Shown here: piece after piece, positions 6,676 through 33,187 of the stretch | Numbering within the stretch: position 1 is the first letter of the stretch | How the letters are laid out: every line of letters begins with the position of its first letter | Assembly (NCBI GenBank): GCA_028281965.1 | Contig: JANQIY010000400.1 | Location: forward strand, 1 to 41,824 | Length of the DNA: 41,824 nt | Reading direction: 5' to 3' | Source: Candidatus Gastranaerophilales bacterium | Lineage (GTDB): Bacteria > Cyanobacteriota > Vampirovibrionia > Gastranaerophilales > UBA9971 | The notes under the pieces: model-generated | Seen by the model: the letters and a program-made list of their open reading frames with translations, nothing else | Database searches by the model: none | What the model was told of the DNA's origin: nothing | Made by a program: the position numbers and the translations under genes

Positions 6676-6688
6676 TTTATTATGACAA

Positions 6689-14500: not shown

Positions 14501-14862
14501 GAATTCTTTTTGAATCAGGAGAGTTAGGAAGCAGAGAAATTTTTGAGAAAGCCTATGGAGAACAAGATAGCCTAGGTTTATTTATTCGAAAAATGGTTGG
14601 ATTGGACAGAAAAACAGTTGAAATATTATTCTCTGATTATTTAAAAGATTCTTTATTTACAGCTAATCAAATATCCTTCATTACAACAATAATTGACCAT
14701 TTAACCCAAAAAGGAATAATGCAGCCTGATTCTTTATATGATCCACCATTTACGAACTTCCACTTTGGAGGCATAAAAGGAGTCTTTAATGACAATAGGG
14801 TTGATGACATCATTAACATAATAAAAAACATTAATGATAATGCAAAAGAACAAACTCTTTAA
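11518..14862 (+). CDS. hsdR: Type I RM restriction subunit (EcoAI/EcoEI-like, DUF4145-like N-terminus)
   Basis: VDYVL...VVEAKR nuclease motif, ATGTGKT, DEAH, LTATP, MLDTGIDVP, QMIGRGTR. Confidence 0.95.
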   Translation: MSNFEFLKEEFDFLYDLANKAEKTVYVAPEASCVLSRKTMENAVKWLYKNDSYLKLPYDTKLVSLIHEQTFRDNLDPKLFNKLKIIQKVGNIAAHSLKKVTEMDSLNVLKELFHFLYWVYRYYSTQTPERGLSFNLELVVSPEKQTDELKKAAKILEEKEQELLEKEKLLKEAEERLIQIQAAKEQNKQVPDNYDYNETQTREYFIDVLLKEAGWNINEPGVCEYEVEGMPNDSGIGFVDYVLWGDNGLPLAVVEAKRTRKDAKVGKQQAKLYADCLQKKFNQRPIIFYTNGYEHFIWDDLNYPPRQVQGFYKKDELQLLINRRKSKLDLKTVPIKHEISGRPYQLEAIKRVCEDFEDKKRKALLVMATGTGKTRTVISLVDVLQRANLVKRVLFLADRNALLHQAKNAFSQHLPHSNPIDITEDKEGMTSRVVLSTYNTMMNMIDSVKSENRIFGAGHFDLIVVDEAHRSVYKKYKAIFDYFDSLMIGLTATPRDEVDKNTYELFELEDGVPTYYYELDQAVTQGYLVPLKSYSVPLKFQREGIKYDELSEEEKEEYEVLFYDEETGQVPEEIDSSAVNKWLFNEDTVDKVLEHVMRNGIKVEGGDKLGKTIIFAKNHDHAEFIQERFDKNYPKLKGSFARVIDNYATYAQSLIDDFSIKTKEPTIAISVDMLDTGIDVPEVVNLVFFKIVRSKTKFHQMIGRGTRLCPDLFAPGQNKECFYIFDFCMNFEFFNLNPKGVESKLQMPLSQKIFIKRLELAQNIKNKEEQLKLLSGKLKDVLHNEVKNMNLDNFIVRQHRREVEKYSNRAIWENLNPEEILELYKKLSGLPSETPREDELAKRFDLMILNMQLGTLDNYKYFDYYQKKMKEIAGQLEDKKSIPAVKAQLELILDMQEGEFWEFITIPMLEEIRIKIRDLIQFLDKSDKKVVYSDFEDEIGEPSEIVAGRYESADDLAQYRKKVEHYLKEYKDQVAIHKLRFNKPITPTDIRELERILFESGELGSREIFEKAYGEQDSLGLFIRKMVGLDRKTVEILFSDYLKDSLFTANQISFITTIIDHLTQKGIMQPDSLYDPPFTNFHFGGIKGVFNDNRVDDIINIIKNINDNAKEQTL

Positions 14863-15460
14863 TTATTCTCATTCTTTTTTAGCCAGTTGTTCAGGTTTGC
14901 TGGTGTTGTGTTGTACCTGTTTACTATGAACTTTTGTGTCGAACCATTCGCAAGCAGTGCTTCAATTTCAGGTTTAAATTGGTCAAGCTTAGATTTGCCC
15001 TTGCCTTTTGGTCTGCCAAGCTTTACACCTTGTTCTTTTCTCGCTTTTAATGATTCTTTTGTTCTTGATGAAATCAGATCTCTTTCAATTTCAGCTGCCA
15101 TAGAAAAAGCCATCGCAATAATTTTACTCTGTATGGTATTGTCTAAATTCCAGTTACCCTTAACAGAATAAATATTAATATTCTTTTGTGTGGCTATAGA
15201 AAGGATCTCCATGCACTCAAGCATTGACCTGCCAAGTCGTGAAAGTTCACTAACGATAATATTGTCATTTTCTTCAGATTCTTCAAGAACTTCAGCTATT
15301 TTTCGTTTTTTCCATGAAATTTTGCCTGATATTTTTTCTTCAACAAAAAAGACCTTTCCAAGGTCTTTATCATTCGCTAGTTTTAATATTTCTGCCTTAT
15401 TCTTTTCTATAAATCCTGTTCGACTGTTGAAACTCTTAAATATGCAGTTGTTCTTGCCAT
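14859..15460 (-). pseudogene. Serine resolvase/invertase frameshifted by a 2-bp insertion
   Basis: ATG 15460 after GAGG gives MARTTAYLRVSTVEQDL*. Removing TA at 15408-15409 joins it to EKNKAEIL...SELSRLGRS...AEIERDLISSRT...LGRPKG. Confidence 0.85.
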
Positions 15461-15518
15461 AAAAACACCTCAATTAAATAAAAACCAATGAATTATACTT
15501 TTAAAATAACTATTATTA

Positions 15519-16523
15519 TTGAATAATAAACCGTTTTCATTTAATCGTACATATATTAAAAACCAAGATATAACTTTTAATGAAGCAGCAGAAAGATATA
15601 TAAAATATCATGCTGAATTGCACTGCAAGAAAAGTACTTATAACAACTATAAAGGCTACTTGAAGAACCATTTAAAGGACTCTCTGGGCAGGAAAAAGTT
15701 AAACAGTATAAAACCTTTAGACATCAGTAGATTAATGCACGAAAAAGTTAATCAAGGCTTATCAAATCAGACGGTAAACCATATAATAAAGTTTATCGGC
15801 GCTGTTTTCCAAAAAATGATTGATGATGAAATTCTTTTCAGAAACCCTGCTACTAAGGTCAAGAAGTTAAAGCAAAACCGGAAAAAGTTTAAAATACTCG
15901 AAACTGAACAGGTTAAGCTTGCATTAGATACAGCCGAAGAATATTTTCCTGATTTTTACCCCCTTTTATTTACCGCAATTTTTACAGGCATGAGACAGGG
16001 AGAGCTGTTTGCCTTAACTTGGAATAAAATAGACTGGTTTAACAAAAGGATATTAATCGATTCAAACTATACGCTGGGCCACCTGACAACCCCAAAAAGC
16101 AACAGAAACCGCCATGTTGATATGTCCAATGAGCTTGCCAAAGTACTCAAGGAGTGGAAATTAAAATGTCCATGCAGCGATAAGGAGCTTGTTTTCCCCA
16201 ATAAAGAGGGAAAATACCTCGATCCAAACAATATGAATAAACGCCAGTTCCAGCCCCTACTGAGGAAGGCCAAAATTAAAACCATCAGGTTCCACGATTT
16301 GAGGCACACTTACGCTTCTCTGCTGATAGCAAGCAATATTCCGATAAAATACATTCAATCCCAGATGGGACATGCTTCTATCCAAATGACAATGGATACT
16401 TACGGTCATATCCTGCCGGAGGTTAACCAGCAAGGAGTTAATGCGCTGGATAATTTGCTCCATTTAAACAAAAAGGCAGAAAACACTGAATTAGGTTATA
16501 ATCAAAAGCATGCTTGCAATTGA
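15519..16523 (+). CDS. Tyrosine integrase, probably lacking its N-terminal arm-binding domain
   Basis: TGMRQGE, TPKS, FHDLRHTYAS, QMGH, YGH catalytic set present; TTG start with no RBS, and homology appears to begin at TYIKNQDITF. Confidence 0.8.
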   Translation: MNNKPFSFNRTYIKNQDITFNEAAERYIKYHAELHCKKSTYNNYKGYLKNHLKDSLGRKKLNSIKPLDISRLMHEKVNQGLSNQTVNHIIKFIGAVFQKMIDDEILFRNPATKVKKLKQNRKKFKILETEQVKLALDTAEEYFPDFYPLLFTAIFTGMRQGELFALTWNKIDWFNKRILIDSNYTLGHLTTPKSNRNRHVDMSNELAKVLKEWKLKCPCSDKELVFPNKEGKYLDPNNMNKRQFQPLLRKAKIKTIRFHDLRHTYASLLIASNIPIKYIQSQMGHASIQMTMDTYGHILPEVNQQGVNALDNLLHLNKKAENTELGYNQKHACN

Positions 16524-17391
16524 TGAACTAAACAAAATTAAAAAGGCCAGTATAGTAGCCTTGGTCTCAGACGAATATTTAATGGACAAATTAGTCCTGA
16601 AAGGCGGGACATGCCTTGAATTTGCATATAAACTACACCATAGAGCTTCTAAAGATATTGATTTCTCCATAGAGGATGAATTTTCACCTGTAGCGTTAAA
16701 GGAATTAAGCGAAAAAATAAGGCTTCAGTTCCTGAAACAGTTCAGCTTGATAAACTATCACGCTTTTGATGTTGAAATAAGAAACAAGCCTGTCAAATTG
16801 CCGGACAATATAAAAATGTCAGGATATGAACTTATGTTCAAACTTATACCGTCAGCACTGTATAACGAAATTGGTGACAATATTGAGGCTCTTAGAAACA
16901 GGGCTGTTCCTCTTGGTGATGGAGATAAGAAAGCCTTTATAATTGAGATTAGTAAATTTGAATATGTGAAAAATAGGGAATTAAAAGAGATAGAAGGACA
17001 TAAACTATACGTTTACTCGCCGTTATTAATCATTTGCGAAAAGCTCAGGGCTCTCTGCCAGAAGATGAAAGAATACAGGGGAAAAGCGGAGGATGTTGAC
17101 TTGCCAAGGGCAAGGGATTTTTATGATATTTATGTCGTGAACGAAAACCTTGTGAACGTTGATTTTAAAGACGTTAATAACAGGGAAGTGTTGAGGCAGG
17201 TGTTCCAGGCAAAAGATGTTAACCTGAACCTCTTAACCCTCCTGAAGGATAAACGTAAAATTCACGAGGATGACTTTAGAAGCGTTTTACAGGCTGATCT
17301 CAGGCAAAAAGGGAGGCCGGAGATATTTGATTACTATTTTGAGTACACATTAAATCTGATAGCCGATTTAGAAGAATTCTGGGTAAAATAG
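16510..17391 (+). CDS. AbiEii/AbiGii-family nucleotidyltransferase toxin
   Basis: LVLKGGTCL...HRASKDIDF, EKLRA and RARDFYD motifs. Confidence 0.85.
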   Translation: MLAIDELNKIKKASIVALVSDEYLMDKLVLKGGTCLEFAYKLHHRASKDIDFSIEDEFSPVALKELSEKIRLQFLKQFSLINYHAFDVEIRNKPVKLPDNIKMSGYELMFKLIPSALYNEIGDNIEALRNRAVPLGDGDKKAFIIEISKFEYVKNRELKEIEGHKLYVYSPLLIICEKLRALCQKMKEYRGKAEDVDLPRARDFYDIYVVNENLVNVDFKDVNNREVLRQVFQAKDVNLNLLTLLKDKRKIHEDDFRSVLQADLRQKGRPEIFDYYFEYTLNLIADLEEFWVK

Positions 17392-18267
17392 TCTCCAGCG
17401 TTCATCAAACTTTCTCTCATCAGCCCTGAGTTCTCTCTGGACAAAGAATTTATACTGGATTCCCATTCCCTCAAAGAGTTTCAGGTCTTTTTCAGGATAT
17501 CCGGCCTTGTCCATAAAAAAACCGATACACTGATGAAATGGATAAATATAATCTAGTTTTTGCAGCATATCCCTCAGCTTTTCAGGGCTGAATTTACCCT
17601 TCGCCTTTTTATAGACATTTAAAACCTCGTAAGTGCCACCGCAATAATGTGGGCTGACTGTTATATCAATTAAAGTCCTCTCAATATTGGTTAGCCTTAA
17701 CTTTTGCCCGTTAATTTCCTTACTGATGATTCCTAAAGCATTACTATACTTGGAACTCAAAAGATTAACTGTATATATTCCATACACTACAAGATTTGAG
17801 CTTATTCTGGGTGGCAGATACATTGCCTTATCAATTTCCTTTTGCTCAAGAACTTTTTTAGGAGTGCTTTTTAAGGGCTTTGACTTTTCGAGGTTAACAA
17901 AAATAGTCTTAGGGATATTATTAGTTAAATTATGCAGGTGCACTGCTGTATAATGGCTTAAAAAAACCTCCGAATTGATACTCAGAGCAAGCTCATAAAT
18001 ATTCGGTTCACTTAGGAAGTATCTGGTATATTTTTTAGCAGAGAAATCCAGTGTCACTTTCTTTTTAAAAACACCCTGTTCTTTTAAGAAAGCCTCAAAG
18101 GTCTTAAATGTAGTATTTTGGTAGATATATTTATTGTTAATACATAAATTGTGTGTTTTTCTTAACTCACTTATTTTATAAAAATTAGAATCTTCACTTT
18201 CAAGGCATCCTAGGATGTTATCAGTGTTTTTAGACATTTTTTCTTTGAGTGCATTTTTGGTAGCCAT
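17368..18267 (-). CDS. AbiEi-like antitoxin / transcriptional regulator
   Basis: FLSHYTAVHLHNLT and LRLTNIERTLIDI are typical of AbiEi C-terminal domains. Start moved to ATG 18267 after GAGG. Confidence 0.75.
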   Translation of the reverse strand: MATKNALKEKMSKNTDNILGCLESEDSNFYKISELRKTHNLCINNKYIYQNTTFKTFEAFLKEQGVFKKKVTLDFSAKKYTRYFLSEPNIYELALSINSEVFLSHYTAVHLHNLTNNIPKTIFVNLEKSKPLKSTPKKVLEQKEIDKAMYLPPRISSNLVVYGIYTVNLLSSKYSNALGIISKEINGQKLRLTNIERTLIDITVSPHYCGGTYEVLNVYKKAKGKFSPEKLRDMLQKLDYIYPFHQCIGFFMDKAGYPEKDLKLFEGMGIQYKFFVQRELRADERKFDERWRLFYPEFF

Positions 18268-18275
18268 CTTTGCCT

Positions 18276-18377
18276 CAATTGGTATCATGCATGATACCAA
18301 TTGTATCATATAAATTTCTAAAATTCAATACTGAACATTTTGTTACTAAAACGAGTAACGTGTACGTTACTCGTTTT
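18276..18377. promoter_or_regulatory. Two inverted repeats upstream of the antitoxin (putative operators)
   Basis: Perfect 28-bp palindrome CAATTGGTATCATGCATGATACCAATTG (18276-18303) and AAAACGAGTAACGT-GT-ACGTTACTCGTTTT (18348-18377). Confidence 0.7.
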
Positions 18378-18495
18378 GCATTATAACATATTTTTAATAA
18401 CATATTTTTACAGCCATTTTAAAGCTCTGTATTTGTTGAGTATTTTAAGGGCTTTAAAATTTCATGGCACAAAATTGAGGGGTAGTTTTGAAAAG

Positions 18496-18542
18496 TGGTG
18501 CGCCTGGCGGGATTCGAACCCACGACCTACGGCTTCGGAGAC
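18496..18542 (-). repeat. att site: tRNA-Arg 3' copy with CCA at the junction of elements A and B
   Basis: 18499-18542 is identical to 37050-37093 (44 bp); it also shares the flank TTTTGAAAAG with the 3735 copy. Confidence 0.95.
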
Positions 18543-18658
18543 ATACGGACGCCAAAATTTATACGAAATCTTATGCAAGAACATGCAGTATTTCCTTGCT
18601 TTTTAGCTTTCATTAAATTATTATTTTATATAATTTCGTACTAATTCCTATGATTTTG

Positions 18659-18680
18659 TGCAGCAAAAATGCAGCAAAAA
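18659..18680 (+). promoter_or_regulatory. Integrase arm-type repeats, left end (TGCAGCAAAAA x2)
   Basis: 11-bp period tandem; the same motif occurs at 37003-37023. Confidence 0.7.
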
Positions 18681-18716
18681 ATTTTATAAATTTAAGGATT
18701 TTTATTGAGGTGCTTT

Positions 18717-19910
18717 ATGGCTTGGATTGAAGAAAGAAAAAAGAAAAACGGTAAAACTACCTACACTGCTACAGTGAGGTTAAAAGTTAGGAAGCAGCTT
18801 GTTACTAAAGTAGCTACGTTTGACAGCATAAGACGAGCTAAAGAATGGGTACAGGAAATTGAATATGAAATAAAAAAAGGTAAATATTCCAAAAATGCCG
18901 ACCTTGATAAATATACCGTTGCCGATATGATTGACAGATATTTAGAGGATGTTGTTCCTGGTAAATATGATAAAAAAAGAGATGTTGATGGAGTTAAGAG
19001 GCATTTAGGCTACTGGCGTGAAAAAATAGGGCAATTCCTTTTAATGGATACAACATCTGCCCTTATTATCAGGTATAGGGATAAATTAAAAAAAGAGCCT
19101 TATGTAAAATTTAAGAGAACCTCTGGAAAAAGTAAGCCGGAAACACCGGAAGAAAGAAAAGCACGGGAAAGAGAGCGTAGTAACGGCACTGTAAATAGAT
19201 ATGTTGGTTCATTATCGAGTGTTTTTACTTATGCTATTTCGTGGGGCTGGATAGAAGAAAATCCAGTATCAAAAGTTAAAAAACTAAAAGAACCACGGGG
19301 TAGGGTGCGTTTTTTAAGTGATGAAGAGCATAAAGCACTATTAGAAGCCTGTAAGGTAGATGATACTCCACAGGATAAAGATAAAAAAGAAAAAATGGTA
19401 ACCAACCCTAATTTGTATATAGTTGTTGTTATTGCTTTAACTACAGGCGCAAGATTTTCAGAGATAATGAATTTAAAATGGGATGATGTTGACTTTAACA
19501 GGAAATTATTTTATTTTCTGGAAACCAAAAACAAAGAACGCCGTTCAGTTCCTATATCTCAACATGCTTATGACCTTCTACAGGAGCATAAAAAGGTTAG
19601 AAGAATTAATACTAAACTTGTTTTTCCAGGAATACAAGGAAATAAACCTTTGGAATTAAAAAGGCAGTGGGAAAACGCTGTTGAAATAGCTGGACTTGAA
19701 GATTTCCGTTTTCACGATTTACGGCATACGGCAGCCAGCTATTTAGCAATGAACGGGGCTTCTTTACTCGAAATAGCCCATATTTTAGGACACAGAACTC
19801 TTGAGATGACTAAACGTTATAGCCATTTAACAGACCAGCACACGGCAGAAATCCTTGAGCGCATTAACGAAGTTCAATTTAACAAAAAAGAGGAGGCAAA
19901 AGCTCAATGA
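18717..19910 (+). CDS. int: Tyrosine integrase, full length
   Basis: N-terminal arm-binding-like beta region, TGARFSE, ETKN, FHDLRHTAAS, LGH, RYSH. ATG 18717 follows GAGG. Confidence 0.95.
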   Translation: MAWIEERKKKNGKTTYTATVRLKVRKQLVTKVATFDSIRRAKEWVQEIEYEIKKGKYSKNADLDKYTVADMIDRYLEDVVPGKYDKKRDVDGVKRHLGYWREKIGQFLLMDTTSALIIRYRDKLKKEPYVKFKRTSGKSKPETPEERKARERERSNGTVNRYVGSLSSVFTYAISWGWIEENPVSKVKKLKEPRGRVRFLSDEEHKALLEACKVDDTPQDKDKKEKMVTNPNLYIVVVIALTTGARFSEIMNLKWDDVDFNRKLFYFLETKNKERRSVPISQHAYDLLQEHKKVRRINTKLVFPGIQGNKPLELKRQWENAVEIAGLEDFRFHDLRHTAASYLAMNGASLLEIAHILGHRTLEMTKRYSHLTDQHTAEILERINEVQFNKKEEAKAQ

Positions 19911-20929
19911 ATAATGAATTAGTTTTTTATAAATCGCCGGATGGTTCTGTAAGTATAGAGGTTTTGTATGCTGATGAAAATGTATGGCTTACTCAAAAGA
20001 AAATGGCGGAATTATTTGATACAACTCCACAAAACATAACCTTACACTTAAAAAATATTTATAAAGAAAAAGAGCTGACTCAGGAATCAACTTGTAAGGA
20101 TTTCTTACAAGTTCAAAAAGAAGGCGTAAGGGAGGTTTCAAGGAATTTAACTTTTTATTCACTTGAGGCAATAATTGCTGTGGGTTATCGTGTAAGCTCT
20201 GATAGAGGTACACAGTTTAGACAATGGGCTACTACAATCTTACAAAAGTATATACACAAAGGCTTTGCTGTTGATAAAGACCGCTTTAAATATGGTTCTA
20301 AGTTCAGTACAAAGTTTTTTGATGAATTACTGGAAGAAATCCGGGATATTCGCAGTAGTGAAAGAATGGCATATCAAAAGATTACAGATATTTACGCCAC
20401 TTCTATTGATTATTCCCCAAAAACAGATACATCAAAAACATTCTTTGCAACGGTTCAAAATAAGCTACACTTTGCTATCACAGGAAAAACAGCAGCAGAA
20501 ATTGTATCAGAAAGAGCGGATAGCAATAAAGCAAATATGGGCTTAACTTCGTGGAGAAAAGGCCCAGAAGGTAAAATAATGCCGAGCGATGTTACTATTG
20601 CTAAAAATTATCTAGAAAAAACAGAGTTAGACCACCTAAATAGAATTGTATCAATGTACTTGGATTATGCTGAAATGCAGGCAATAAGGCAAAAGCCTAT
20701 GTATATGAAAGACTGGACGGAAAAATTAAATGCCTTCTTGAAGTTTAGTGAATATGAAATTCTAACAAATGCGGGAAAAATCAGCCAAGAAGTTGCCAAG
20801 AATCTAGCTATGAAAGAATATGAAGAATTTAAAAAGATTCAAGATAAAAATTATGTGTCTGATTTTGATTTAGAAGTGCAGGAACTTAAAAAACTTGCTG
20901 ATGCTAATAAACCAGATAATAAAAGCTGA
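19907..20929 (+). CDS. RhuM-family protein
   Basis: WLTQKKMAELF, IIAVGYRV, TQFRQWAT, FDELLEEIRDIRSSER, VQNKLH, IAKNYL; ATGA overlap with int. Confidence 0.9.
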   Translation: MNNELVFYKSPDGSVSIEVLYADENVWLTQKKMAELFDTTPQNITLHLKNIYKEKELTQESTCKDFLQVQKEGVREVSRNLTFYSLEAIIAVGYRVSSDRGTQFRQWATTILQKYIHKGFAVDKDRFKYGSKFSTKFFDELLEEIRDIRSSERMAYQKITDIYATSIDYSPKTDTSKTFFATVQNKLHFAITGKTAAEIVSERADSNKANMGLTSWRKGPEGKIMPSDVTIAKNYLEKTELDHLNRIVSMYLDYAEMQAIRQKPMYMKDWTEKLNAFLKFSEYEILTNAGKISQEVAKNLAMKEYEEFKKIQDKNYVSDFDLEVQELKKLADANKPDNKS

Positions 20930-21009
20930 TATAATAAAATAATCCCCGAAGCTTGGCGGCGCAGGGATTATGTGTAAGTTTATATTTAACTATGGGAATA
21001 GTGTAACAC

Positions 21010-22242
21010 ATGCAAATAGAAATATGGCGACCATATTTAATCAAAATTATAAAAGACATTGGTTTTTTCAAAGATAATTTTGAAAACAGTTTAAGTGGAA
21101 CCGAAACCAGCTTTAAAAAACAGGATGATTTTAATAAATTAATAAAACACTTAGAGGCTTTATTTCAAAGGTTTTACTGTATATCCTCTGGGGTAGAAAT
21201 AAAGTATCAAGAAGGAAAGCCTTTTTTAATTAATCAAAATCATGAAATTATTAAATCTCAGGAAGTTTTTGCAAAATATTTGAAAGAATCTATAAAAAGA
21301 AAAGGTCTTTTATATTTAAGAAGAGAAGATTTATTAAAATTTGACGAAACATATAAACTTATTGAAGAAAAATTAATTAGATTCAATTTGACTACTTTCC
21401 AAGAAGAACAATCACATCTAATTACACTATACAAAAGAGAAAGAGATTATAATAAGTGTATATTAGCCTTTCTCTGTAAAGATATTACCCAATTAGAAGG
21501 TATTTTAATAAATGATGAAAAAAATGGGATTGACAAGAATACCTTTATTGATGAACTTGTTAATGAATTAAATAAATTATCACATCATTGTAAAATCTGG
21601 ATTATTACAGATCATATAAAGAATTTGTTAGCTTATCCTTGTAATTTATCAGAAGAACCTTCTCAAAATTTAGCTATCCGCTACCATAATAGTCTAATTG
21701 GCTTTTGGCATATTGAACAAGAAATAAACAAAAGATCATTGTTTACAGAAATAATTTCTACTACAGAAAAGCCTGTTGATGAATTTAAAGATAAAGAAAA
21801 TAATGAAAACTCACCAGAGGTTATTAATAAATTAAATGAAATATTAGAACGTGTTGAGGGTATTGAAGCACAGGGAAAATTAAAACAAGAAACAACGCAG
21901 AAATCAGTGGGAGAAATAAAGCATAATTATACTTTCGAAAAATGCATAGAAGGAAAAATGAAAGGGAAAGTGCGTGTATTTTATAAGGGCAGAGAAAAAG
22001 GGGATTTGCCAGGCCCGATAAGACAAAAAGTATTTGAGTATTTGCTTAATAACAGCAACAACAAAAATGCTATATCTCTCAGAAATATAAAAAAAGCTTG
22101 CGGAGTAAAAAGTGAAAATGCTTTAAAAAATACATATATAGGCGAAATTAATACCATGCTTAGGATGGTTCATGGTAATGAAAAAACATATATAACTCTT
22201 GACCAAAAAAATAAAATATTTTGCCACAATATCCCATTATAA
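21010..22242 (+). CDS. Hypothetical protein with a possible C-terminal winged-helix domain
   Basis: 410-aa ORF; the C-terminal QKVFEYLL...ISLRNIKKACG...YIGEINTML pattern is wHTH-like. Confidence 0.55.
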   Translation: MQIEIWRPYLIKIIKDIGFFKDNFENSLSGTETSFKKQDDFNKLIKHLEALFQRFYCISSGVEIKYQEGKPFLINQNHEIIKSQEVFAKYLKESIKRKGLLYLRREDLLKFDETYKLIEEKLIRFNLTTFQEEQSHLITLYKRERDYNKCILAFLCKDITQLEGILINDEKNGIDKNTFIDELVNELNKLSHHCKIWIITDHIKNLLAYPCNLSEEPSQNLAIRYHNSLIGFWHIEQEINKRSLFTEIISTTEKPVDEFKDKENNENSPEVINKLNEILERVEGIEAQGKLKQETTQKSVGEIKHNYTFEKCIEGKMKGKVRVFYKGREKGDLPGPIRQKVFEYLLNNSNNKNAISLRNIKKACGVKSENALKNTYIGEINTMLRMVHGNEKTYITLDQKNKIFCHNIPL

Positions 22243-22486
22243 CTATCAGTGAGTTATCTTGCAAATGCTTTTTGATAGATAGGCTAATGCTTTCAGGGCT
22301 TTAAAATTTAAAAAACACCAAAATCTAGTGTGCTATTTTTTTATTTTTGTTTTTCAAAATAGCTATATGCTTTGCTGTGTAAAATTATACCCCCTTACAA
22401 TGTCTCACCAGTCACTCACTGCGACTGTTTTGCACTAAATATAAGGGATAATTGGCATAGGTACTAAGATAGGAGATACAGCACTG

Positions 22487-22693
22487 ATGACAACTAACTA
22501 CAAACAAGGACACCGTACCATTAAGCAAATGATTGAAGAACATCATTACGCTGGTGGAGAAGGTGGATTGCGCAGATTAATTGAGGACAACAAGTATGGT
22601 ATAGGTGTTTGCGTTCGCCGTGTAGGAAAACGCATAATGGTTGACCTGGAAAAGTACTATAACTGGCTGGAATCAATTAATGAGAGTGCATAA
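22487..22693 (+). CDS. Excisionase/AlpA-like small DNA-binding protein
   Basis: 68 aa, AGGAG RBS, RRVGKRIMVDLEKYYNWL wing motif; first gene of the replication operon. Confidence 0.65.
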   Translation: MTTNYKQGHRTIKQMIEEHHYAGGEGGLRRLIEDNKYGIGVCVRRVGKRIMVDLEKYYNWLESINESA

Positions 22694-22699
22694 GCCAGC

Positions 22700-23161
22700 A
22701 TGATGGACGGATGGATAAAACTATATCGCCAAATACTTAAATGGGAGTGGTATTCAGATGTAAATGTATGTAGACTGTTTATCCATTTACTATTAACCGC
22801 CAATCATAAAGCAAATAAATGGCGGGGCATAGCTATCGAAAAAGGGCAAAAGCTAACCAGCTTGAAGCATTTGGCGGAAGAAACAGGCTTAAGCGTTCAG
22901 CAGGTTAGAACTTCCATTTTAAAGCTAAAATCAACAAACGAAATAACACACCGTACAACACGCCAATATTCAATCATATCAATAGTTAAATGGGATGATT
23001 ACCAATCTGAGCAACACACAAGAAAACAAACGGGTAACAAACGAGTAACAACTAACAAGAATGATAAAAATGATAAGAAAAATTATCAACCTAAAGAGTT
23101 ATTAGAAAAAGACTCAAACGCCGAATTGGATGAAATATTAAAGCGGGAGGGTGTGAAATAG
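22700..23161 (+). CDS. Phage replication initiator (replisome-organiser-like N-terminal wHTH)
   Basis: GWIKLYRQI...FIHLLLTANH...GQKLTSLKHLAEETGLS; contains internal iteron-like repeats. Confidence 0.75.
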   Translation: MMDGWIKLYRQILKWEWYSDVNVCRLFIHLLLTANHKANKWRGIAIEKGQKLTSLKHLAEETGLSVQQVRTSILKLKSTNEITHRTTRQYSIISIVKWDDYQSEQHTRKQTGNKRVTTNKNDKNDKKNYQPKELLEKDSNAELDEILKREGVK

Positions 23162-23931
23162 TGGCTATTTACTGCATACACGACCATGACCCGGAACTAA
23201 AAAAGCGTGGAGCTTTTGAAATACAAAAAAGTGAAATTAGACAATACAACCAGCAAGGATACGGAATTTTTCACACTGCTAATGAGTTTAACGGACGCAG
23301 GAAAGCGGAGAATCTCGTAAAAATAAACTACTGGCTAGCTGATATTGACGAAGGGGATAAGTTCAATGAGCAAATAGACAGAATAATGAGCTTGCCATTA
23401 ATACCAACCATATTAATTGAAACAAAGAAAGGCTTTCATTGTTACTGGAAGGCAGAAAACGCAACGCTGGAAAACTATAAAGAGATTGAAAAAGGCTTAA
23501 TCCAGAGACTTAAAGCAGATAAGGCATGTACTGATGTATGCAGGCTTTTAAGATATCCAGGCACATATCATATGAAAGACCCCCAAAATCCCTTTAAAGT
23601 TGAGCTTATTATGAACAATAAAAAAAGCTATTCAGAAGAAAAAATGCTCTGTGCGTACCAGCTTCCAAAACCAAAATTAAAACCCTTGAAGTATAACGGG
23701 GAAAAGAAAGATTTTTTAGATGAATCAAAGTGGGAGAGGTTTTTCAATGTTTCACAAGTTGGAGAGGGTAACAGAAATTCAACACTGGTACGCTATACAT
23801 TTTGGATGAAAGACCAGCAGCTTAATAATAGCCAAATTGAGTATATTATCAATGGCTTAAATCAAAAAATTGCCAAGCCGTTGTCTCAGCAGGAAGTAGA
23901 CCAGTTATTGAGGACGAAAGGTGTATATTAA
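23161..23931 (+). CDS. AEP/RepB-type DNA primase with a PriCT-like C-terminus
   Basis: ADID, ETKKGFHCYW, DVCRLLRYPG, EGNRN, PLSQQEV motifs. Confidence 0.8.
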   Translation: MAIYCIHDHDPELKKRGAFEIQKSEIRQYNQQGYGIFHTANEFNGRRKAENLVKINYWLADIDEGDKFNEQIDRIMSLPLIPTILIETKKGFHCYWKAENATLENYKEIEKGLIQRLKADKACTDVCRLLRYPGTYHMKDPQNPFKVELIMNNKKSYSEEKMLCAYQLPKPKLKPLKYNGEKKDFLDESKWERFFNVSQVGEGNRNSTLVRYTFWMKDQQLNNSQIEYIINGLNQKIAKPLSQQEVDQLLRTKGVY

Positions 23932-24821
23932 TGCTTAAAAAATATATGGAAGCTAACAAAAAAGTCGGTGTTTTCGGGGTTAAGTACCTTGATGACAAAT
24001 TAAGAGGCATTCTTCTTGGGGATTTAATCTTGATAGGAGCAAGAAGCGGGGCAGGAAAATCTACAATAGCAAATTATATTGCCGCAATAAACCGAGATAA
24101 AGGACACAAAGTTTCTTTGTTTTCACTAGAAAACTTTGAGGGGGATTGTTTCATTGAAAAAGCCTATTACAAATATATGCAGGAAACACAAGATTACAGC
24201 CTTAATTTGCGGGATTTTGCAAGCGGTTCAGTACAGTTTGATATGCTGGCTTTCCAAAAGGCAGAAGAGTACGCAAAAAAATGTTTTGAGGGGATAAATA
24301 TTATAAACAGGCGAGCAAATTATAACATTGAGGATTTAAAAAATGACATTATCAGGGAAGCAGAGGTAAATGAAAGCAAATTAATAATTTTAGACCACCT
24401 GGATTATGTTTCAAAATATGGCAACGAAAGCGATAACCTGCACACTAATGAATTAATGCGTACCATCAGGGATGTTCAGGACGCTTTTAAGGTTGCGGTT
24501 ATTGCGATATCTCATTTAAGAAAAAGTTTAACTCTTAAAGAAGCCCCTGTAATTCCCTCTATGGAGGAGTTTATCGGCTCAAGTAACAAATATAAAGAGG
24601 CTACGGCTGTTATTATGCTTGCACCTGATGATGAATGCAATATGACTAATGATGATAAAACCAAAAGGGGGACATGGTGCTGTATTCGCAAGTTAAGAAT
24701 GGGCGGAATAGACAACAGAGCCGCTAAACTATGGTTCGACACTATCACAGGGCAATATTTAAACAGTTATAACTTATACAAAGTTAATTATTCAGGCACT
24801 AAAACAGAGCGATTACTATGA
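23931..24821 (+). CDS. DnaB-like (SF4) helicase, C-terminal domain
   Basis: LILIGARSGAGKS, FSLE, IILDHL, ISHLRK, GSS motifs. Confidence 0.85.
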   Translation: MLKKYMEANKKVGVFGVKYLDDKLRGILLGDLILIGARSGAGKSTIANYIAAINRDKGHKVSLFSLENFEGDCFIEKAYYKYMQETQDYSLNLRDFASGSVQFDMLAFQKAEEYAKKCFEGINIINRRANYNIEDLKNDIIREAEVNESKLIILDHLDYVSKYGNESDNLHTNELMRTIRDVQDAFKVAVIAISHLRKSLTLKEAPVIPSMEEFIGSSNKYKEATAVIMLAPDDECNMTNDDKTKRGTWCCIRKLRMGGIDNRAAKLWFDTITGQYLNSYNLYKVNYSGTKTERLL

Positions 24822-24879
24822 AAAATTGGCTTAAAACTTGAAAAACTTAGAATTATTTAGAAATAGAAGAGGTAAAAAG

Positions 24880-25305
24880 ATGCTGAATACAAAACAAAGG
24901 AAGTTTATACCGGAATATCTAAAGACAGGATGTATAAGGACAACCTGCGATAAGCTGGGTATTCACGAAACAACTTACTTTAAATGGCGTGAAAATCAAG
25001 AATTCATTGCAGAGCTTAAAAAGCAGCTTGATGAGTTATATAATTCTTCTCTTAATGAATTAAAAATGATTTCATCAGAGGCAATAATAGTTCTTAAAGG
25101 GCTTTTAAACAGCGATATTGAAGTAATTAAGCTCAGGGCAGCCAGCACAATTCTTGATAATCTTCATAAATTTTCAGAAAAAAAGGAATTTAATTTATCA
25201 GTAGTAACAAAAAACAATAATACCAACGTAAATACAGATGTAAAGGAGTTTTCAGATGAAGAACTTGAAGAATTTATCGAAAATCTCGGCTATAAACGTG
25301 TTTAA
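24880..25305 (+). CDS. Terminase small subunit-like HTH protein
   Basis: LNTKQRKF...CDKLGIHETTYFKW HTH, KLRAASTIL, SDEEL tail; lies directly before terL. ATG 24880 follows GAGG. Confidence 0.65.
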   Translation: MLNTKQRKFIPEYLKTGCIRTTCDKLGIHETTYFKWRENQEFIAELKKQLDELYNSSLNELKMISSEAIIVLKGLLNSDIEVIKLRAASTILDNLHKFSEKKEFNLSVVTKNNNTNVNTDVKEFSDEELEEFIENLGYKRV

Positions 25306-26740
25306 TGAACTTTCTATAAGATATGCAAGAAAGAACCTGATTGATTTTACCAGAAAAACATTTAAACATTATGTTCCTAACTGGCATCATTATTTAATAG
25401 CTGACAGGTTGGAACTAGTTGAGAAAAGGGAAATAACACGATTAATAATTTCCATGCCTCCCCGTTATGGCAAATCTGAGCTGGCTTCTGTCCGGTTTCC
25501 GGCATGGTATCTAGGGAAAAGACCTCTTGAAAGTATCATTGCAGCGTCTTATTCTTCAAAATTAGCTGAAGATTTTGGGAAAAATGCAAGAAATACTGTT
25601 AATAGTGATGAATATAAGGAAATATTCAATATTACATTATCAGGCGATTCAGCAGCAAAGCAGAAGTGGACAGTTATAAGTGAAGAAAAATATATAACAG
25701 GTGAGTACTTTGGTACTGGAGTAGGAGGAGCAGCAACGGGAAAAGGAGCAAATTTATTATTAATAGACGACCCTGTTAAAAACAGGCAAGATGTGCAATC
25801 AGAAATATTAAGGGAAAATGTTTGGGACTGGTATACTTCAACGGCTTATACAAGGCTTGAAAAAGACGGTGTAATTGTACTTATAATGACCCGTTGGCAT
25901 GAAGATGACCTTGCAGGGCGTTTGATTAACGGACAGTCAGAATATTCTGATAAATGGGAAGTTTTGAACCTTCCTGCTATAGCTGAAGAAAACGAAGTTT
26001 TTGAGATTTATAATAAACATTACATTGAAAAGCTGGGGACTAATATTTTAACCAGAAAAGAAGGCGAACCTCTCTGGGCAGCAAAATTTAACATTGATAA
26101 TTTGATAAAAACTAGGATTGCAGTAGGGTCTTATGACTGGAACTCTCTTTATCAGCAAAATCCTTTATCTGCTGAAGGAAATATATTTAAGCGTGAATGG
26201 TTTAAATTCTATAAAGAACCACCTCCAAATTTACATACTATAACTCAATCCTGGGATTGTGCTTTTAAAGATAATAAGGATTCTGATTATGTAGTAGGTC
26301 AGGTGTGGGGCAAGTCAGGAATAGATTGCTATTTGTTAGACCAGGTAAGAGGCAAAATGAATATTATTGCTACTATGCAGGCAATAAGAAATTTATCAGC
26401 AAAATATCCTAATACAACAGCGACATTAATTGAAGATAAAGCAAACGGAACAGCAGTAATAGAGATGCTTAAAAGCGAGCTTACAGGAATTATTCCGGTA
26501 GAACCCGAAGGCGGTAAGATTGTAAGAGCGCAAGCAGCAGCACCTTTATTAGAGGCTGGAAATATTTATTTGCCAGACCCTGCAATAGCCCCCTGGATAA
26601 ATGATTTTATCTTTGAATGCTGCGGTTTTCCTAACACCAAAAATGATGATCAGGTTGATGCAATGACACAAGCTCTTGCAAGAATAGGCAAAAAAGTTTT
26701 TATTATGGAAAATCCTGAAAATTTTATAATTGGACTTTAA
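25256..26740 (+). CDS. terL: Terminase large subunit
   Basis: MPPRYGKS, LLIDDP, MTRWHEDDL, YQQNP; nuclease-domain SWD, IEDKANG, DDQVDA all intact. Confidence 0.92.
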   Translation: MKNLKNLSKISAINVFNELSIRYARKNLIDFTRKTFKHYVPNWHHYLIADRLELVEKREITRLIISMPPRYGKSELASVRFPAWYLGKRPLESIIAASYSSKLAEDFGKNARNTVNSDEYKEIFNITLSGDSAAKQKWTVISEEKYITGEYFGTGVGGAATGKGANLLLIDDPVKNRQDVQSEILRENVWDWYTSTAYTRLEKDGVIVLIMTRWHEDDLAGRLINGQSEYSDKWEVLNLPAIAEENEVFEIYNKHYIEKLGTNILTRKEGEPLWAAKFNIDNLIKTRIAVGSYDWNSLYQQNPLSAEGNIFKREWFKFYKEPPPNLHTITQSWDCAFKDNKDSDYVVGQVWGKSGIDCYLLDQVRGKMNIIATMQAIRNLSAKYPNTTATLIEDKANGTAVIEMLKSELTGIIPVEPEGGKIVRAQAAAPLLEAGNIYLPDPAIAPWINDFIFECCGFPNTKNDDQVDAMTQALARIGKKVFIMENPENFIIGL

Positions 26741-26827
26741 TCAATATAATATTTTGTTTAAAAAAAATTTTTATTCTTTCTATACAAATATTGACAGTTA
26801 AGCTCGATTAAAATCTTTAAAGTTTTA

Positions 26828-27172
26828 CTATAATTCCTTAAAGATACTTTTAATATCTTCTTTTTTAATAATTTCAATTAATTTTGTAACAAGCTCTGTC
26901 TCTTTAGCATCAAGCTCAAATTGCTGTTTTAATAACTTTTTTGAAGAAGAGGGGCTGGTTTTTGCTAGTATTTCTTCATCATCATCAAAAAAGTACAGTG
27001 GATTGACTTTATACTCTTTAACTAACTGAATTAATATTTCAAATTTAACTGTATGCTTTTCCTTCTCCCATTCTCTCAAGGTTTTAGGGGTAATGCCAAG
27101 TTTTTCAGCAAACTCAATTTGCTTAAATCCAAGTGTTTCTCTTATCTTAATTAGCTTTTCACCAATTGCCAT
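26828..27172 (-). CDS. XRE/Cro-CI family HTH regulator
   Basis: IGEKLIKIRETLGFKQIEFAEKLGITPKTLREWE. Confidence 0.9.
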   Translation of the reverse strand: MAIGEKLIKIRETLGFKQIEFAEKLGITPKTLREWEKEKHTVKFEILIQLVKEYKVNPLYFFDDDEEILAKTSPSSSKKLLKQQFELDAKETELVTKLIEIIKKEDIKSIFKEL

Positions 27173-27214
27173 AGTATACTCACTTAATGATTAGGTAGAA
27201 CCTGTTCTTTTTTC

Positions 27215-27243
27215 TTGACAATAGGTAATTTATGACTTATTAT
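27215..27243 (+). promoter_or_regulatory. Sigma70 promoter divergent from the XRE gene
   Basis: TTGACA-17-TATTAT. Confidence 0.6.
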
Positions 27244-27275
27244 GATTTTGTCTAAATAATAGGATTATCCTATTG

Positions 27276-27320
27276 CCAAGAGGGTTGGTCTGTTCGCATT
27301 ATCAACCCTTTTGGTTTCTT
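27276..27320 (+). terminator. Terminator/attenuator-like hairpin
   Basis: CCAAGAGGGTTGGT-loop-ATCAACCCTTTTGG followed by TTTCTT. Confidence 0.55.
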
Positions 27321-27412
27321 AACTATTTGGATTATAAAACAGAAATTACCTGTTTAGCAAATCATTTTGTTAAAACGGGGTAATTAGTGTACTTACAAAA
27401 TAAAAAACAAGC

Positions 27413-27787
27413 ATGAGATTTAGTTTTTTTATTCTAATTTTTACTTGCTTTATCCTTGTATTTATAAACATTTCTAACTTTCGAGGAGAAAGAGAATACC
27501 CAGATAAAAAAACTCTTTTGAGAGCTAAGAGTTGGCTTAAAAATTATCATGCAAAAAGAAAGCATGAACAATTTAAACCCGACCAGTATCAAATTGACTA
27601 TAACACATTGATAGTCACAAAATTTGTTGATGAAATTGAAGCTAGGAATATCAGAAAGCAAAAAAGAATCTTACAAATAAAACAAGCAACTTTATCATGC
27701 CCTGCAAATTATGAAGAAATTTGGTCTTTTGTTCATCCGAGAGATGTTTTAATTATGCTTTATGATAAGCAAGATGAGATAATATGA
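27413..27787 (+). CDS. Hypothetical protein
   Basis: 124-aa ORF downstream of the divergent promoter; hydrophobic N-terminus; no recognised motif. Confidence 0.45.
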   Translation: MRFSFFILIFTCFILVFINISNFRGEREYPDKKTLLRAKSWLKNYHAKRKHEQFKPDQYQIDYNTLIVTKFVDEIEARNIRKQKRILQIKQATLSCPANYEEIWSFVHPRDVLIMLYDKQDEII

Positions 27788-27999
27788 AATACTATCATAT
27801 AAATGGACAAAAAATGGGTTTGAATGGTGTTTTATAAATATTAATTTTTGCAAAAGTTTAACAAGAAAAAAATGTAACACTAGTAAACATAGTCTAGCCC
27901 TAATTCTCAAGAATCGTTTAATCAGAGGAATTGTTACATTATAATTTAGATTGTATAATTGACTTGACTTTATAGTACATTTTCTGCGGGTGGTAAGTA

Positions 28000-30900
28000 A
28001 TGAGTGAAGAATTAATACAAAGAGACCTTATAAAGAATCCTGATAAAATTGGCAAGTGGGATTTTTATAATATTGGCTCTACCTCAATAAAAGCCCTTAA
28101 AGAAAACGGAATTATAAGAAATGTAGATTACGGTAATGAAGAAAAAAAGAAAGTTGATGCTTTAATTGTTAATAATAAAGAAGTTATTGCAGTTATTGAG
28201 TATAAAAAACCTAGTGAATTTAAAACAAAGGCACAAAAAAACAAAGCTATTCAGCAAGAGTTAGAGGCAACCAGAAAGCTTTGTTCTAGTATTATGATAG
28301 CTACTGATACAAAGGACACAGTATGGGTAAATACATTAACTGGCAATATAATTAAAGATGAAAGTGGAAAAGAGTTAAAAGAACCTTTTGAGCCTACAAA
28401 TGAAAAGCTTTCAGAGTTAATTGAAAAAATAAGATATTCAATTAATGAAAAAAATGATCTTATTAAGCCTAAAAAATTAGTTAATCCAACTGATCTGGCA
28501 AAACAAATTTGGCAGGACATTTGGTCTGTTAGTGGAGCAACTCCTGAAAACTGCCTATATACATTTGTGGAATTATTTATTTTTAAATATTTAAGTGATT
28601 TGGGCGTTTTGAAAGGCATTCATAATTTTGATGTTTTAATTGATAGTTTTGATTCAAATACTACAGAAGAGGTTTTAGAAAATTATGCAACTACAATTCG
28701 TCCTAAAATTAAAAGTCTTTTCCCTGAAAACCTGCTTGATAAAACAACAATTATAAATGGCACAATTTTTGTAAGTAAAGACCAAAAGGCAGTAAAAGGA
28801 TACAGTACTGTTTTTAAAAAAGTACTATTAAAATTCAAAGATTATGGCAAATTAGAACATATTGATTATGATTTTAAAAGTCAACTATTTGAAAGCTTTT
28901 TGAAAGAAAGTATTAGTAAGAAAAACTGGGGACAGTTTTTTACACCATTAAAGGTAATACGAGCTATTAATCAAATGGCTAAGGACGATATAAGAGAAGG
29001 AATTAAGATTTGCGATCCTGCATGCGGAGTGGGCAAATTTTTACTTGAACCAATAAAAACTAAGCTTGATAGATTTTATGAAATAAATAAAAAATCTATT
29101 AAACCTAAAATCACTATACATGGTTTTGATAAAGGTTTTGATAAAGATGAGCAAAAAACAATAATATTGGCAAAAGCAAATATGCTAATTTATTTCTCTG
29201 ATTTAATAAAAGATAATTTAAACCTAACAAAAGACTTTGCCAAGCTATTTAATGAAAGTTTTGTCTTAAAAACAAATTCAATACTAGGAACTCTTTCTGA
29301 GCCTGTAGAAAATGAGTATGATTTAATTTTAACTAATCCTCCCTATGTTACTAGTGGTAGTAGCAACTTAAAAGAAGAAATTAAAAAAGATGGAGAATTG
29401 GAAAATTATTACAAAATAAATGCAATGGGTGTTGAAGGTTTATTTATGGAGTGGATAATTAAAGCTCTAAAGCCTGGTGGGAAAGCATTTGTTGTAACGC
29501 CTGATGGAATATTCAACAGGCAAAACGATAAAAATTTACGACAATATATTACTGATGAATGCTTTATTGATGGAATTGTTTCCTTACCTTTAAATACATT
29601 TTTTACAACTAACAAGAAGACATATATTCTTTGTTTAACGAAAAAAAATGATAAAAAACAAATACAACAAGAACCAGTATTCACCTATTTAGTAAGTGAA
29701 CTAGGAGAAAGTAGAGATGTTTACCGTTTTGATATAGAACAAGATGATTTAAAAGAAGCGGTTACCCTTTATTCCTTCTTTAAAGGCAATAAAGAGAATT
29801 TTAGTAAAATTAATAAAGATGAAAGATGTAAAATTCTTCCATTTGACTTTTTTAAAGACAATTTAGAAAACAGTTGGATTATTGATAAATGCTGGACAGA
29901 AGAAGAACGAATAAAGTTAGGGTTTATAGAAAAGAAAGAAAAAGTCAATTTGTTAGAATTTTCAATAATTATAAGAGATATAGCTAATAATATAAATGAA
30001 TTCCAAGAAGAAATTAAGGAATTAACAGAAAAAAAAAATTCTGAAATAAAAAGTAAAAAATTTCAATTAAAAGAACTTTTTTCAATTGAAAGAGGGTTTT
30101 CTAAATATACTAAAAAATATGGAAATACAAATAATGGTGAATATCCAGTATATTCAGCATCGAACAATGCTCCCTTAACTTATATTAATACATATGATTA
30201 TGATGGAGAGTATTTAACTTGGGCAACAAATGGATTTGCTGGATATATTAAATTTATAGAAGGAAAATTTTCTATCAATGCAGATAGAGGATTATTAAAA
30301 CAAAGATTTAAGAATATAAACCCTTTATATGTAAAGTACATTTTAGAACCAAAATTAAGGTTAATAGCAAAAGGTCGGAAAGGAGAAAAAGGAGAAGACG
30401 AGTTTACAAAAGTATATCCTTCTATGATTGAAGATATTGAAATTAATATCCCAATAGCAGAAAATCGTGATTTTGATATATCTAAACAAAATGAAATTGT
30501 TGGAAAAATAATTTTTATAGAAGATTTGAAGCGAAAAATATGTGAATACAAAAAGCAGATTAAAGCTTTAAATATAACTATAAAAGAGAATTATTTATTT
30601 AAGGAAGTCAAAATTAGTACTATTTTTATTTTTCCTGCAATAAAGGGGCTTACTAAAACTTTTATAGAAAAAAATAAAGGAGATATTCCTGTATATGGAG
30701 GTAGTCAAGAGGAAATTCCTATTGGTTATATTAAGGATAATTTAAAAAATATTAAATACTTTGAAAATTGTTTAGCTTGGAACAGAGAAGGGTCTGTTGG
30801 CTATGTTTTTTGGCATAGACATAAATTTACGACAAATGACCATCATAGACCTTTAATGTTAAAACCTGAATTGAAAAATATAATAAACTTAGACTATATG

Positions 30901-31131: not shown

Positions 31132-31171
31132 CTTTAGTTCAGATTAGTTATAGATATTAATATGTAAAAGT

Positions 31172-32287: not shown

Positions 32288-32376
32288 TTTTTTATCTCAA
32301 CTACTATGAAGAAAAGTGGCTTTCAGTTTATCTTTGATTTATAAATTGTATTGATTAAAAGAAAAGAAATCAAGAA

Positions 32377-33168: not shown

Positions 33169-33187
33169 TCAAAAGTGTTTTAAATTT

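Follow-up and report, generated by a model that had tools for sequence, protein, structure and literature searches.

A tRNA-Arg island with both terminase subunits and no recognised virion genes in a Gastranaerophilales bacterium: a possible phage satellite

Phage satellites, as presented in the openly accessible parts of the literature, either redirect the terminase of a helper phage (through TerS, the terminase small subunit, through Rpp or through cos mimicry), or rebuild both the capsid and the terminase, as do the cf-PICIs (phage-inducible islands of the chromosome that form capsids) and MiniFlayer, or encode no terminase at all. The PICIs (chromosomal islands that are inducible by phages) and the tycheposons carry TerS or a capsid gene (PMC10085698; tycheposon preprint, 10.1101/2020.12.28.424599), the VEIMEs (integrative mobile elements encapsidated in virions) carry 'terminase small subunit homologs' along with 'motor-like ATPases' (Eppley 2022, PMC9618062), and in the cf-PICIs and the Streptomyces satellites the terminase large subunit (TerL) always stands, in the same accessible texts, alongside portal and capsid genes. 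An integrative satellite possessing both TerS and TerL in the absence of capsid genes is not described in the open-access main text of these papers, or in that of the EPIP preprint (PMC12822802), deCarvalho 2023 (PMC10690885), PMC11389934 or Fallon 2023 (PMC10299305), the supplements of which may list variants. Here we consider one element, island B, carried by contig JANQIY010000400.1 of a Candidatus Gastranaerophilales bacterium (assembly GCA_028281965.1; genome of 2.65 Mb in 405 contigs), this complete contig of 41.8 kb being the window analysed. Island B (18499-37093) is an 18.55-kb, att-delimited, integrase-bearing element situated in a tRNA gene; it is of satellite size, its terminase is complete, and no virion genes were found in it. 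From its gene content, it is plausible that island B represents, as a single element, a PICI-like island that has retained the whole terminase.

The ends of island B are marked by an exact direct repeat of 44 bp, found at 18499-18542 and 37050-37093 with a spacing of 18,551 bp. This repeat is the 3' part of tRNA-Arg(CCG) (37049-37124, minus strand), the sole tRNA recognised by ARAGORN in the window, the 3' 44 nt of the gene making up the attR core and the left copy, a partial duplicate of the tRNA 3' end, the attL core. The core occurs in just three places in the genome, all of them on this contig, and the third copy, at 3738-3780, matches in 43 of 44 bases and is preceded by the same few bases, making island B the tRNA-proximal member of a tandem pair. 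The stretch between this third copy and island B (3738-18498, or 3.78-18.5 kb) is a second, older island, designated island A. A loose end at 18486, considered as a junction, is explained by the third att copy. The window contains four copies of TGCAGCAAA, arranged in tandem two by two at 18659-18678 and at 37003-37022, all within island B and adjoining the cores; the left pair falls in a stretch that reads as two copies of TGCAGCAAAAA (18659-18680, plus strand), and the right pair is likewise on the plus strand. In shuffled sequence the mean number of matches was 0.7, and four copies were reached in one of 100 shuffles. Following circularisation, the two pairs would flank the core as the P' (left pair) and P (right pair) arm sites. 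The earlier note on this DNA, made from the sequence alone, had described an element of 18.55 kb delimited by att ends and arm repeats, and this description holds; the range it gave, 18496-27172, takes in no more than the left half of island B, which continues to 37093.

Island B encodes 16 open reading frames (ORFs), whose families were scored by Pfam and PHROGs and further by NCBIfam and PADLOC. The left half, on the plus strand throughout as far as terL, begins with a tyrosine integrase of 401 aa (18705-19910; PF00589, Phage_integrase, 6e-31 over the full profile; phrog_1, 2.7e-74), followed by a RhuM-family cargo protein (19907-20929) and by an orphan of 410 aa, possibly a regulator (21010-22242), after which comes the largest intergenic gap of the island, of 244 bp (22243-22486), presumably the promoter or regulatory region of the genes that follow. 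These are a 68-aa excisionase (Xis)/AlpA-like DNA-binding protein (22487-22693; no Pfam match), a DnaD-like replication initiator or helicase loader of 153 aa (22700-23161; phrog_2514, 7.5e-30), a primase of 256 aa (23161-23931; several PHROG primase families, with weak matches to RepB_primase/PriCT_1), a DnaB-like helicase of 296 aa, consisting of the C-terminal ATPase domain only (23931-24821; PF03796, DnaB_C, 3.7e-21), TerS of 155 aa (24838-25305; PF13022, 2.8e-11, and phrog_24579, phrog_2538, phrog_7344 and phrog_4102, all of them terS families, at best 9e-10), and an intact TerL of 494 aa (25256-26740; PF03237 and PF17289, Terminase_6N and Terminase_6C; phrog_38, 8.5e-132). From xis to terL, successive genes are separated by 6 nt, overlap by 1 nt, overlap by 1 nt, are separated by 16 nt and overlap by 50 nt, and the replicon is intact and joined with terS and terL in one operon. 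A gene for an XRE-family regulator (26828-27172, minus strand; PF01381, 5.6e-11) is convergent with terL and divergent from the promoter of the cargo genes. The intact integrase, the tight xis-to-terL operon and the convergent XRE gene directly after terL had all been noticed in the earlier note and are all present, every junction of the operon being an overlap or a spacer of 16 nt at most. Within the 3' part of the DnaD-like gene, at 23025-23051, the sequence AACAAACGAGT is repeated in tandem 2.5 times, and this repeat may serve as iterons or as a replication origin.

As to the integrity of the terminase, an alignment of the TerL of island B with its six nearest relatives for which genomic context is available shows 93 columns in which these six do not vary, and the island protein keeps 88 of them (94.6%), leave-one-out values for the six themselves being 82-100%. 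The blocks PPRxGKS, LLIDDP, TRWHEDDL, SWDCAFK, EDKANG and NDDQVDA are all present, and we take these to be Walker A (the P-loop), Walker B, the TRW coupling motif and the three acidic motifs of the nuclease. The alignment profile matches the solved large terminases 8dgc_E and 4bij_A over the P-loop/Walker B region, and in a quick IQ-TREE phylogeny of 47 sequences (leaving out locus L098, which offers no full ORF, and locus L111) the terminal branch of the island B protein measures 0.64, neighbouring branches measuring 0.51-0.76. The protein thus appears to be under constraint, with no sign of relaxed selection, which had been named beforehand as an observation that would speak against a functional terminase island, and the ATPase and nuclease motifs that had been noticed in it are present.

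No match to head, connector, tail or lysis families was obtained by Pfam or PHROGs for any of the 16 ORFs, and nothing came up in the window (best E 0.04) or in the genome when 23 TerS and head-module proteins from the relatives of TerL were used as tblastn queries. The coding fraction of island B is 0.916, its gaps are of 244 bp at most, and all 16 ORFs are unbroken; with 91.6% of the sequence coding and such short gaps, there is no space for hidden remnants. The 371-aa conserved hypothetical protein (31172-32287, minus strand) has 25 homologues, some of them on chromosomal contigs of up to 3.1 Mb, and its family is characterised by an invariant N-terminal W/C/P/W pattern; its AlphaFold2 (AF2) model, with a mean confidence (pLDDT) of 85, comprises a helical N-terminus, a beta domain and a helix of 89 residues, Foldseek finds nothing in the PDB below E 0.1 and no meaningful capsid or portal match, and the family profile finds nothing in the PDB either. 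The protein is neither HK97-like nor portal-like. The 766-aa protein (34566-36866, minus strand) belongs to a very large family (2052 representative proteins, usually of ~810 aa, at E<=1e-3) for which Pfam has no model, in which a PD-(D/E)xK-like D/E/K motif is nearly invariant and whose members end in a SEC-C zinc motif, absent from the island B copy; the family profile matches the PDB in the SEC-C tail only, and the protein is not a virion protein. The 410-aa orphan has no Pfam, PHROG, NCBIfam or PADLOC match and matches itself only among 5.8e9 proteins, its Atlas matches score 0.85, which is under the usable threshold, and its single-sequence AF2 model (pLDDT 38) is unusable, a mostly helical content being a weak hint against the HK97 fold. 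A smaller protein of 124 aa (27413-27787, plus strand), again without a family match, has a hydrophobic N-terminus and reads as a small membrane-like protein. The fold check proposed for the unassigned ORFs has accordingly cleared the 371-aa protein of capsid and portal folds but not the 410-aa protein; with the fold of the latter excepted, the absence of a visible portal or capsid remnant is borne out by the Pfam, PHROG and tblastn searches.

Among the known satellites, the PICIs, of the SaPI and the proteobacterial type, are the closest in plan. Island B shares with them its size class, its nature of a tRNA/att-bounded island with an integrase at one end, and its gene order, which runs from int through accessory genes to a small Xis/AlpA-like protein, a primase-replication module, terS and further accessory genes, with no structural or lysis genes. 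A co-directional operon layout from int to alpA is that of the proteobacterial PICIs. The core order and the positions of the accessory genes are those given in the accessible text of de Sousa et al. 2023 (PMC10085698), in which the median PICI core is 9.5 kb, and the int-to-terL span in island B is 8.0 kb. Of the components by which PICIs are recognised, the primase-replicase module (DnaD-like, primase, DnaB_C) and TerS (PF13022 and the four PHROG terS families) are present, a regulator of the alpA/merR/stl kind may be represented by the 68-aa protein, whose sole match is a weak one to an excisionase family, the 410-aa neighbour being an orphan, and no capsid-morphogenesis gene, frequent in PICIs though not universal, is found among the 16 ORFs by Pfam or PHROGs. 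The difference lies in TerL, which island B encodes at full length, and so it departs from PICIs as elements with no other packaging genes; in the same accessible text, terL is a mark of the cf-PICI and not of the PICI (PMC10085698). The cf-PICIs have 11 core components, capsid, protease, portal, head-tail adaptor and connector among them, of which accepted variants keep 9-11 (PMC10085698, accessible text). While island B shares with them the integrase, a candidate regulator, the primase, TerS and TerL, it has none of the five structural components just named (Pfam, PHROGs). The Streptomyces satellites MiniFlayer and MulchRoom likewise encode both terminase subunits, but, as far as their accessible descriptions go, these also have genes for portal, major capsid protein, scaffold and adaptor while lacking key replication genes, a gene content opposite to that of island B. 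The components typical of P4, namely Sid/Psu/Delta-like proteins and the alpha primase-helicase, do not appear in the PHROG or Pfam annotation of the 16 ORFs, and to our knowledge P4 encodes no terminase. Finally, defective prophages are similar to island B in that the genes of the left half are of phage origin and morphogenesis genes are absent, but island B contains no fragments or inactivated genes, its att sites and integrase are intact, and its operon is streamlined.

The reading we favour, tentatively and as something a little short of probable, is that island B is a PICI-type phage satellite, or 'hitcher', keeping a complete terminase. Its gene layout agrees better with a PICI-type satellite plus TerL than with a decayed prophage, and nothing in the element is broken: the att cores are identical over 44 bp, the integrase is full-length and TerL is fully conserved. 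For such a satellite, the following cycle may be envisaged. A helper phage would switch on the xis-to-terL operon, upon which the integrase and the small Xis/AlpA-like protein would excise island B via the core of 44 bp and the arm sites of sequence TGCAGCAAA, and the replicon of the island would produce concatemers. The TerS of the island would then recognise a pac or cos site of the island, while its TerL would cut the DNA, dock on the portal of procapsids made by the helper and fill them, with tails and lysis supplied by the helper. In a capsid of ~40 kb there would be room for about two copies of island B, and the occupation of helper procapsids would also interfere with the helper. One candidate for a helper is a prophage in the same genome (C289), whose module at ~26.9-36.3 kb (positions 2972-12281 of locus L078) encodes TerS, TerL (phrog_979), a 504-aa protein, portal (phrog_113), protease, scaffold, major head protein, adaptor and major tail protein. 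A BLASTN comparison of island B with the rest of the genome revealed no DNA shared with this prophage.

Several observations weigh against a satellite. The TerL and the portal of the candidate helper are members of other families. The Xis/AlpA assignment is weak (phrog_9668, 4.8e-5), neither a capsid-size redirection gene nor a recognisable master repressor was found, and the 410-aa orphan, alone among the ORFs of the island, is not formally cleared of a structural role. The assembled contigs of runs X1-X3 contain no supported attP or attB joint, island B being present in X1 only, a run that is labelled as coral metagenome and is probably where this DNA comes from; the joints listed have sides of only 20-26 nt or come from tRNA genes of other organisms, and the depth in these contigs is ~90 and flat across island B and the left flank. 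No empty site is shown in two congeners (G005, G006) or in a further relative (G008), in which the flanking genes are on separate contigs or are without an adjoining tRNA-Arg. No other element of the same architecture was detected, either via TerL in contigs of genomes and of metagenomes, in IMG/VR, in 11 other genomes from the family and 400 from the order, and in 5.8e9 proteins, or via the helicase in IMG/VR and the 400 genomes, or via the primase in IMG/VR, where the primase search returned nothing. The genes nearest to those of the island are, in addition, found in phages. The primase and helicase have two relatives, each set within a full phage or prophage. The first is L077, a phage contig of 42 kb from IMG/VR that encodes tail fibres and an endolysin together with a different TerL, and to it the primase is 61% and the helicase 75% identical. 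The second is a prophage-like region (G121; helicase 59%) in a single genome among the 400 others from the order, and overall the identities of these replication relatives range from 46 to 75%. Head genes follow terL in all six of the nearest TerL loci with context, each of which contains at least one head-morphogenesis family among the ORFs tested (portal Pfam family in 4/6, one of these just under the cutoff; MuF in 4/6; scaffold, protease or capsid in 4/6), and this is what an origin by deletion predicts.

These last points are also those on which the strongest alternative is built, that island B is the remnant of a defective prophage, a tRNA-Arg phage that lost the genes from portal to lysis, as well as those between helicase and terS, and gained defence genes, so that TerS and TerL are left over, or make the island a young 'proto-hitcher', defective prophages having been discussed in this role in the accessible text of PMC11389934. 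All genes of the left half are phage-derived; in each of the six nearest loci an upstream gene of 123-197 aa overlaps terL, as it does in island B, which means that the overlap of terS with terL is normal for the family, and the packaging module ends exactly at the usual boundary of terL and portal. The cargo half is lower in G+C (0.26-0.30 vs 0.34-0.36), as expected of a later acquisition, and the uniqueness of island B in the collections searched is that of a one-off decay product. What speaks against a remnant is the state of the element. It contains no pseudogenes, no gene fragments and no spare non-coding DNA, its att cores are identical in 44 of 44 positions, the integrase is intact, and TerL shows neither loss of conserved positions nor a long branch. 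On the left side of the replication genes, no divergent switch of the repressor/cro type is found by Pfam or PHROGs. In L077 as in G121, the helicase is followed by other genes and not by terS, so that these relatives are not collinear with island B across the helicase-terS junction, where the spacing in the island is 16 nt, and a prophage origin therefore needs two clean deletions at the least, each falling between genes and together leaving one tight operon. Proximity of the relatives matters as well. Among 5.8 billion proteins, identity to the island B TerL reaches 52% at best, and the best identities in the other collections are 50% in GTDB genome contigs, 48% in IMG/VR, 47.5% in GenBank phages, 47% in JGI metagenome contigs and 41% both in the 11 other genomes of the family and in the 400 other genomes of the order. 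While it is formally true that the closest relatives are full prophages, which had been put forward as grounds for rejecting a satellite, the identities of 37-51% to the six nearest loci are too distant to show a simple deletion. We regard a remnant as possible, but somewhat doubtful. Sequence relationships indicate that island B is assembled from phage modules of different lineages, with no second copy of the architecture found in the collections searched, and the suggestion of the earlier note that it stands for a distinct satellite class has not been sustained: int-primase-DnaB-terS-terL synteny without structural genes was not found in related genomes, and the relatives are phage-like.

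Another alternative is that the island is primarily one of defence, with TerS and TerL acting mainly against phages, by jamming or occupying the procapsids of an invader, by cutting its concatemers, or by serving terminase-sensing immunity as a trigger or a decoy. Interference of satellites with the packaging of helpers is known (PMC11417361, accessible text), and immune sensors of the Avs type recognise TerL (PMC13601566, accessible text), both of which we count in favour of such a role. Islands A and B are, moreover, packed with known and candidate defence genes, including restriction-modification (RM), RhuM, Schlafen-like and nuclease genes. In island B, the RhuM-family protein (PF13310, 2.9e-109) corresponds to the PADLOC candidate PDC-S05 (6.5e-148), a protein with a Schlafen/AlbA_2 domain (33188-34393, minus strand; PF04326, 3.4e-6) corresponds to candidate PDC-S50 (1.3e-63), and a single-chain RM enzyme of 1043 aa (28000-31131, plus strand) combines a nuclease-like N-terminus, an N6 methylase and two specificity domains (PF02384, 7e-35; PF01420, 1e-15; a weak PF04313; PADLOC MTase_I/Specificity_I), and thus the defence cargo predicted in the earlier note is supported by family matches. 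A metallophosphoesterase (32377-33168, plus strand; PF00149, 2.4e-7; phrog_1649, 1.5e-39) completes this half. A metagenome locus (L058, 5036-15380) offers a further argument, as a gene for a SIR2 + NB-ARC (STAND-type) protein is located in it directly upstream of a ParB-methylase/TerS/TerL module, an arrangement worthy of note because Avs sensors detect terminases. Downstream of terL the same locus continues with a convergent ORF and with genes for an RHS-like protein, for a tyrosine integrase and for DUF3489. Against a mainly defensive function, TerS and TerL of island B share their operon with the genes for excision and replication and not with the defence cargo, which ties them to the life cycle of the element itself, no terminase-based system is among the matching PADLOC models, and interference and self-transfer are mutually compatible. 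We consider this alternative unlikely. Weakest, and likewise unlikely in our view, is some other route of transfer (vesicles, transformation or mobilisation with the tandem neighbour), with the terminase-like genes in a different role such as the processing of replication products: with its three att copies all in the same orientation, the array would allow the integrase to mobilise island A, island B or the two together, and dependence on a helper is putative, but TerL keeps the packaging ATPase and nuclease motifs together with a cognate TerS, no role beyond packaging is described for the TerL family in the satellite literature cited, so far as its accessible text goes, and no relaxase or conjugation gene is found among the ORFs of island B by Pfam or PHROGs.

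Some features of the two islands deserve mention in their own right. The strongest sigma-70-like site of island B (27215-27243; TTGACA-17-TATTAT, 11 of 12 matches) is followed by the palindrome AATAGGAT/TATCCTATT, the whole spanning 27215-27266; it is divergent from the XRE gene, leads into the genes for the 124-aa protein and the RM enzyme, and resembles a controller-type switch that would serve the RM cargo. A sequence of 50-65 bp located between the gene for the Schlafen-like protein and that for the 766-aa protein (34422-34486) recurs with 83-86% identity on three other contigs of the genome (C355, C202, C378) and also matches contigs of the other two runs, as a short dispersed repeat. The nearest LptF/G cluster in the Atlas is commonest in Cyanobacteriota, which gives no more than a lead to the phylum of the host. 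Island A encodes a type I RM system (hsdM, hsdS, hsdR) and AbiEii/AbiEi, along with further defence-type genes, namely AAA_14/DUF4143 (PDC-S01), GIY-YIG/DUF4357 (PDC-S14) and a methylase-specificity fusion, and it possesses a Mpi-like serine invertase beside a XerC/D-like tyrosine recombinase. Its att site is without an adjoining integrase, and its left end has different tandem repeats, TTGAAACAAAA. Island A could be moved in cis by the integrase of island B.

While no second copy of island B has been found, terminase genes in the absence of recognised capsid genes are encountered elsewhere in the order. TerL matches at E<=1e-60 are present in 25 of the 400 other genomes, and all 25 lie in a different, compact module, made up of a ParB_N-methylase fusion, DUF5681 (TerS-like) and TerL, with DUF2924 and a large serine recombinase either just downstream or divergently upstream. 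Among 24 loci fetched from as many genomes (L088-L111), of which ~8 kb on each side was examined, the methylase and/or DUF5681 is present in 21 and the recombinase in 18, the rest being cut by contig ends. A genome from the family to which the window belongs (G011) has two copies, on C16 (L084) and C44 (L086), bounded by housekeeping genes, and these are the only two for which the lack of virion genes extends to the whole element. None of the 24 loci gave a match to 8 portal or 4 capsid queries, and among 49 neighbouring ORFs from 15 loci there was no PHROG of head, connector or tail, while a true phage locus (L087), used as a control, gave matches to portal, major head and head-closure proteins. 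The cargo of these modules includes RtcB and XRE, helicase-exonuclease and HNH genes. Like island B, they are compact and integrative, with both terminase subunits, a recombinase, cargo of the defence type and no portal or capsid found alongside; they differ in their DUF5681 TerS and ParB-methylase and in having no primase/helicase replicon, whereas island B has a tyrosine integrase, and neither the large serine recombinase with DUF2924, nor the ParB-methylase fusion, nor DUF5681 is found in it by Pfam or PHROGs. The TerLs of the modules, 32-38% identical to that of island B, form one clade that excludes it (Shimodaira-Hasegawa-like approximate likelihood ratio test, SH-aLRT, 100), pointing to an independent origin and not to membership. 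In phage WO, according to the accessible text of PMC10299305, genes for a ParB-methylase, terminase, gpW and portal adjoin attL, and DUF2924 adjoins the recombinase, so that the serine-recombinase/ParB-methylase module is phage-derived too.

Overall, capsid-less islands that bear a terminase seem to recur, and their recurrence within the order raises the prior for reading island B as a satellite, without implying that it is one of them. A broader proposition is that satellites with a complete terminase and no capsid represent a general and so far unrecognised strategy, in which an own TerS/TerL motor works on the portal of a helper, the helper providing nothing but procapsids, tails and lysis, and which has arisen at least two times (with a tyrosine integrase and a DnaB replicon, and with a serine recombinase and a ParB-methylase), such islands being among the main vehicles of defence genes in lineages not yet cultured. 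This we consider doubtful. Were there a satellite that retains the motor alone, a foreign TerL could engage the portal of a helper, which would bear on the specificity of terminase for portal and on the question of which phages mobilise which islands, and the tools that count TerL as a mark of a phage or a cf-PICI would file such islands as degraded prophages. If, on the other hand, the satellite reading is wrong, island B nevertheless provides a clean illustration of a tandem array of islands, laden with defence genes, at a tRNA gene.

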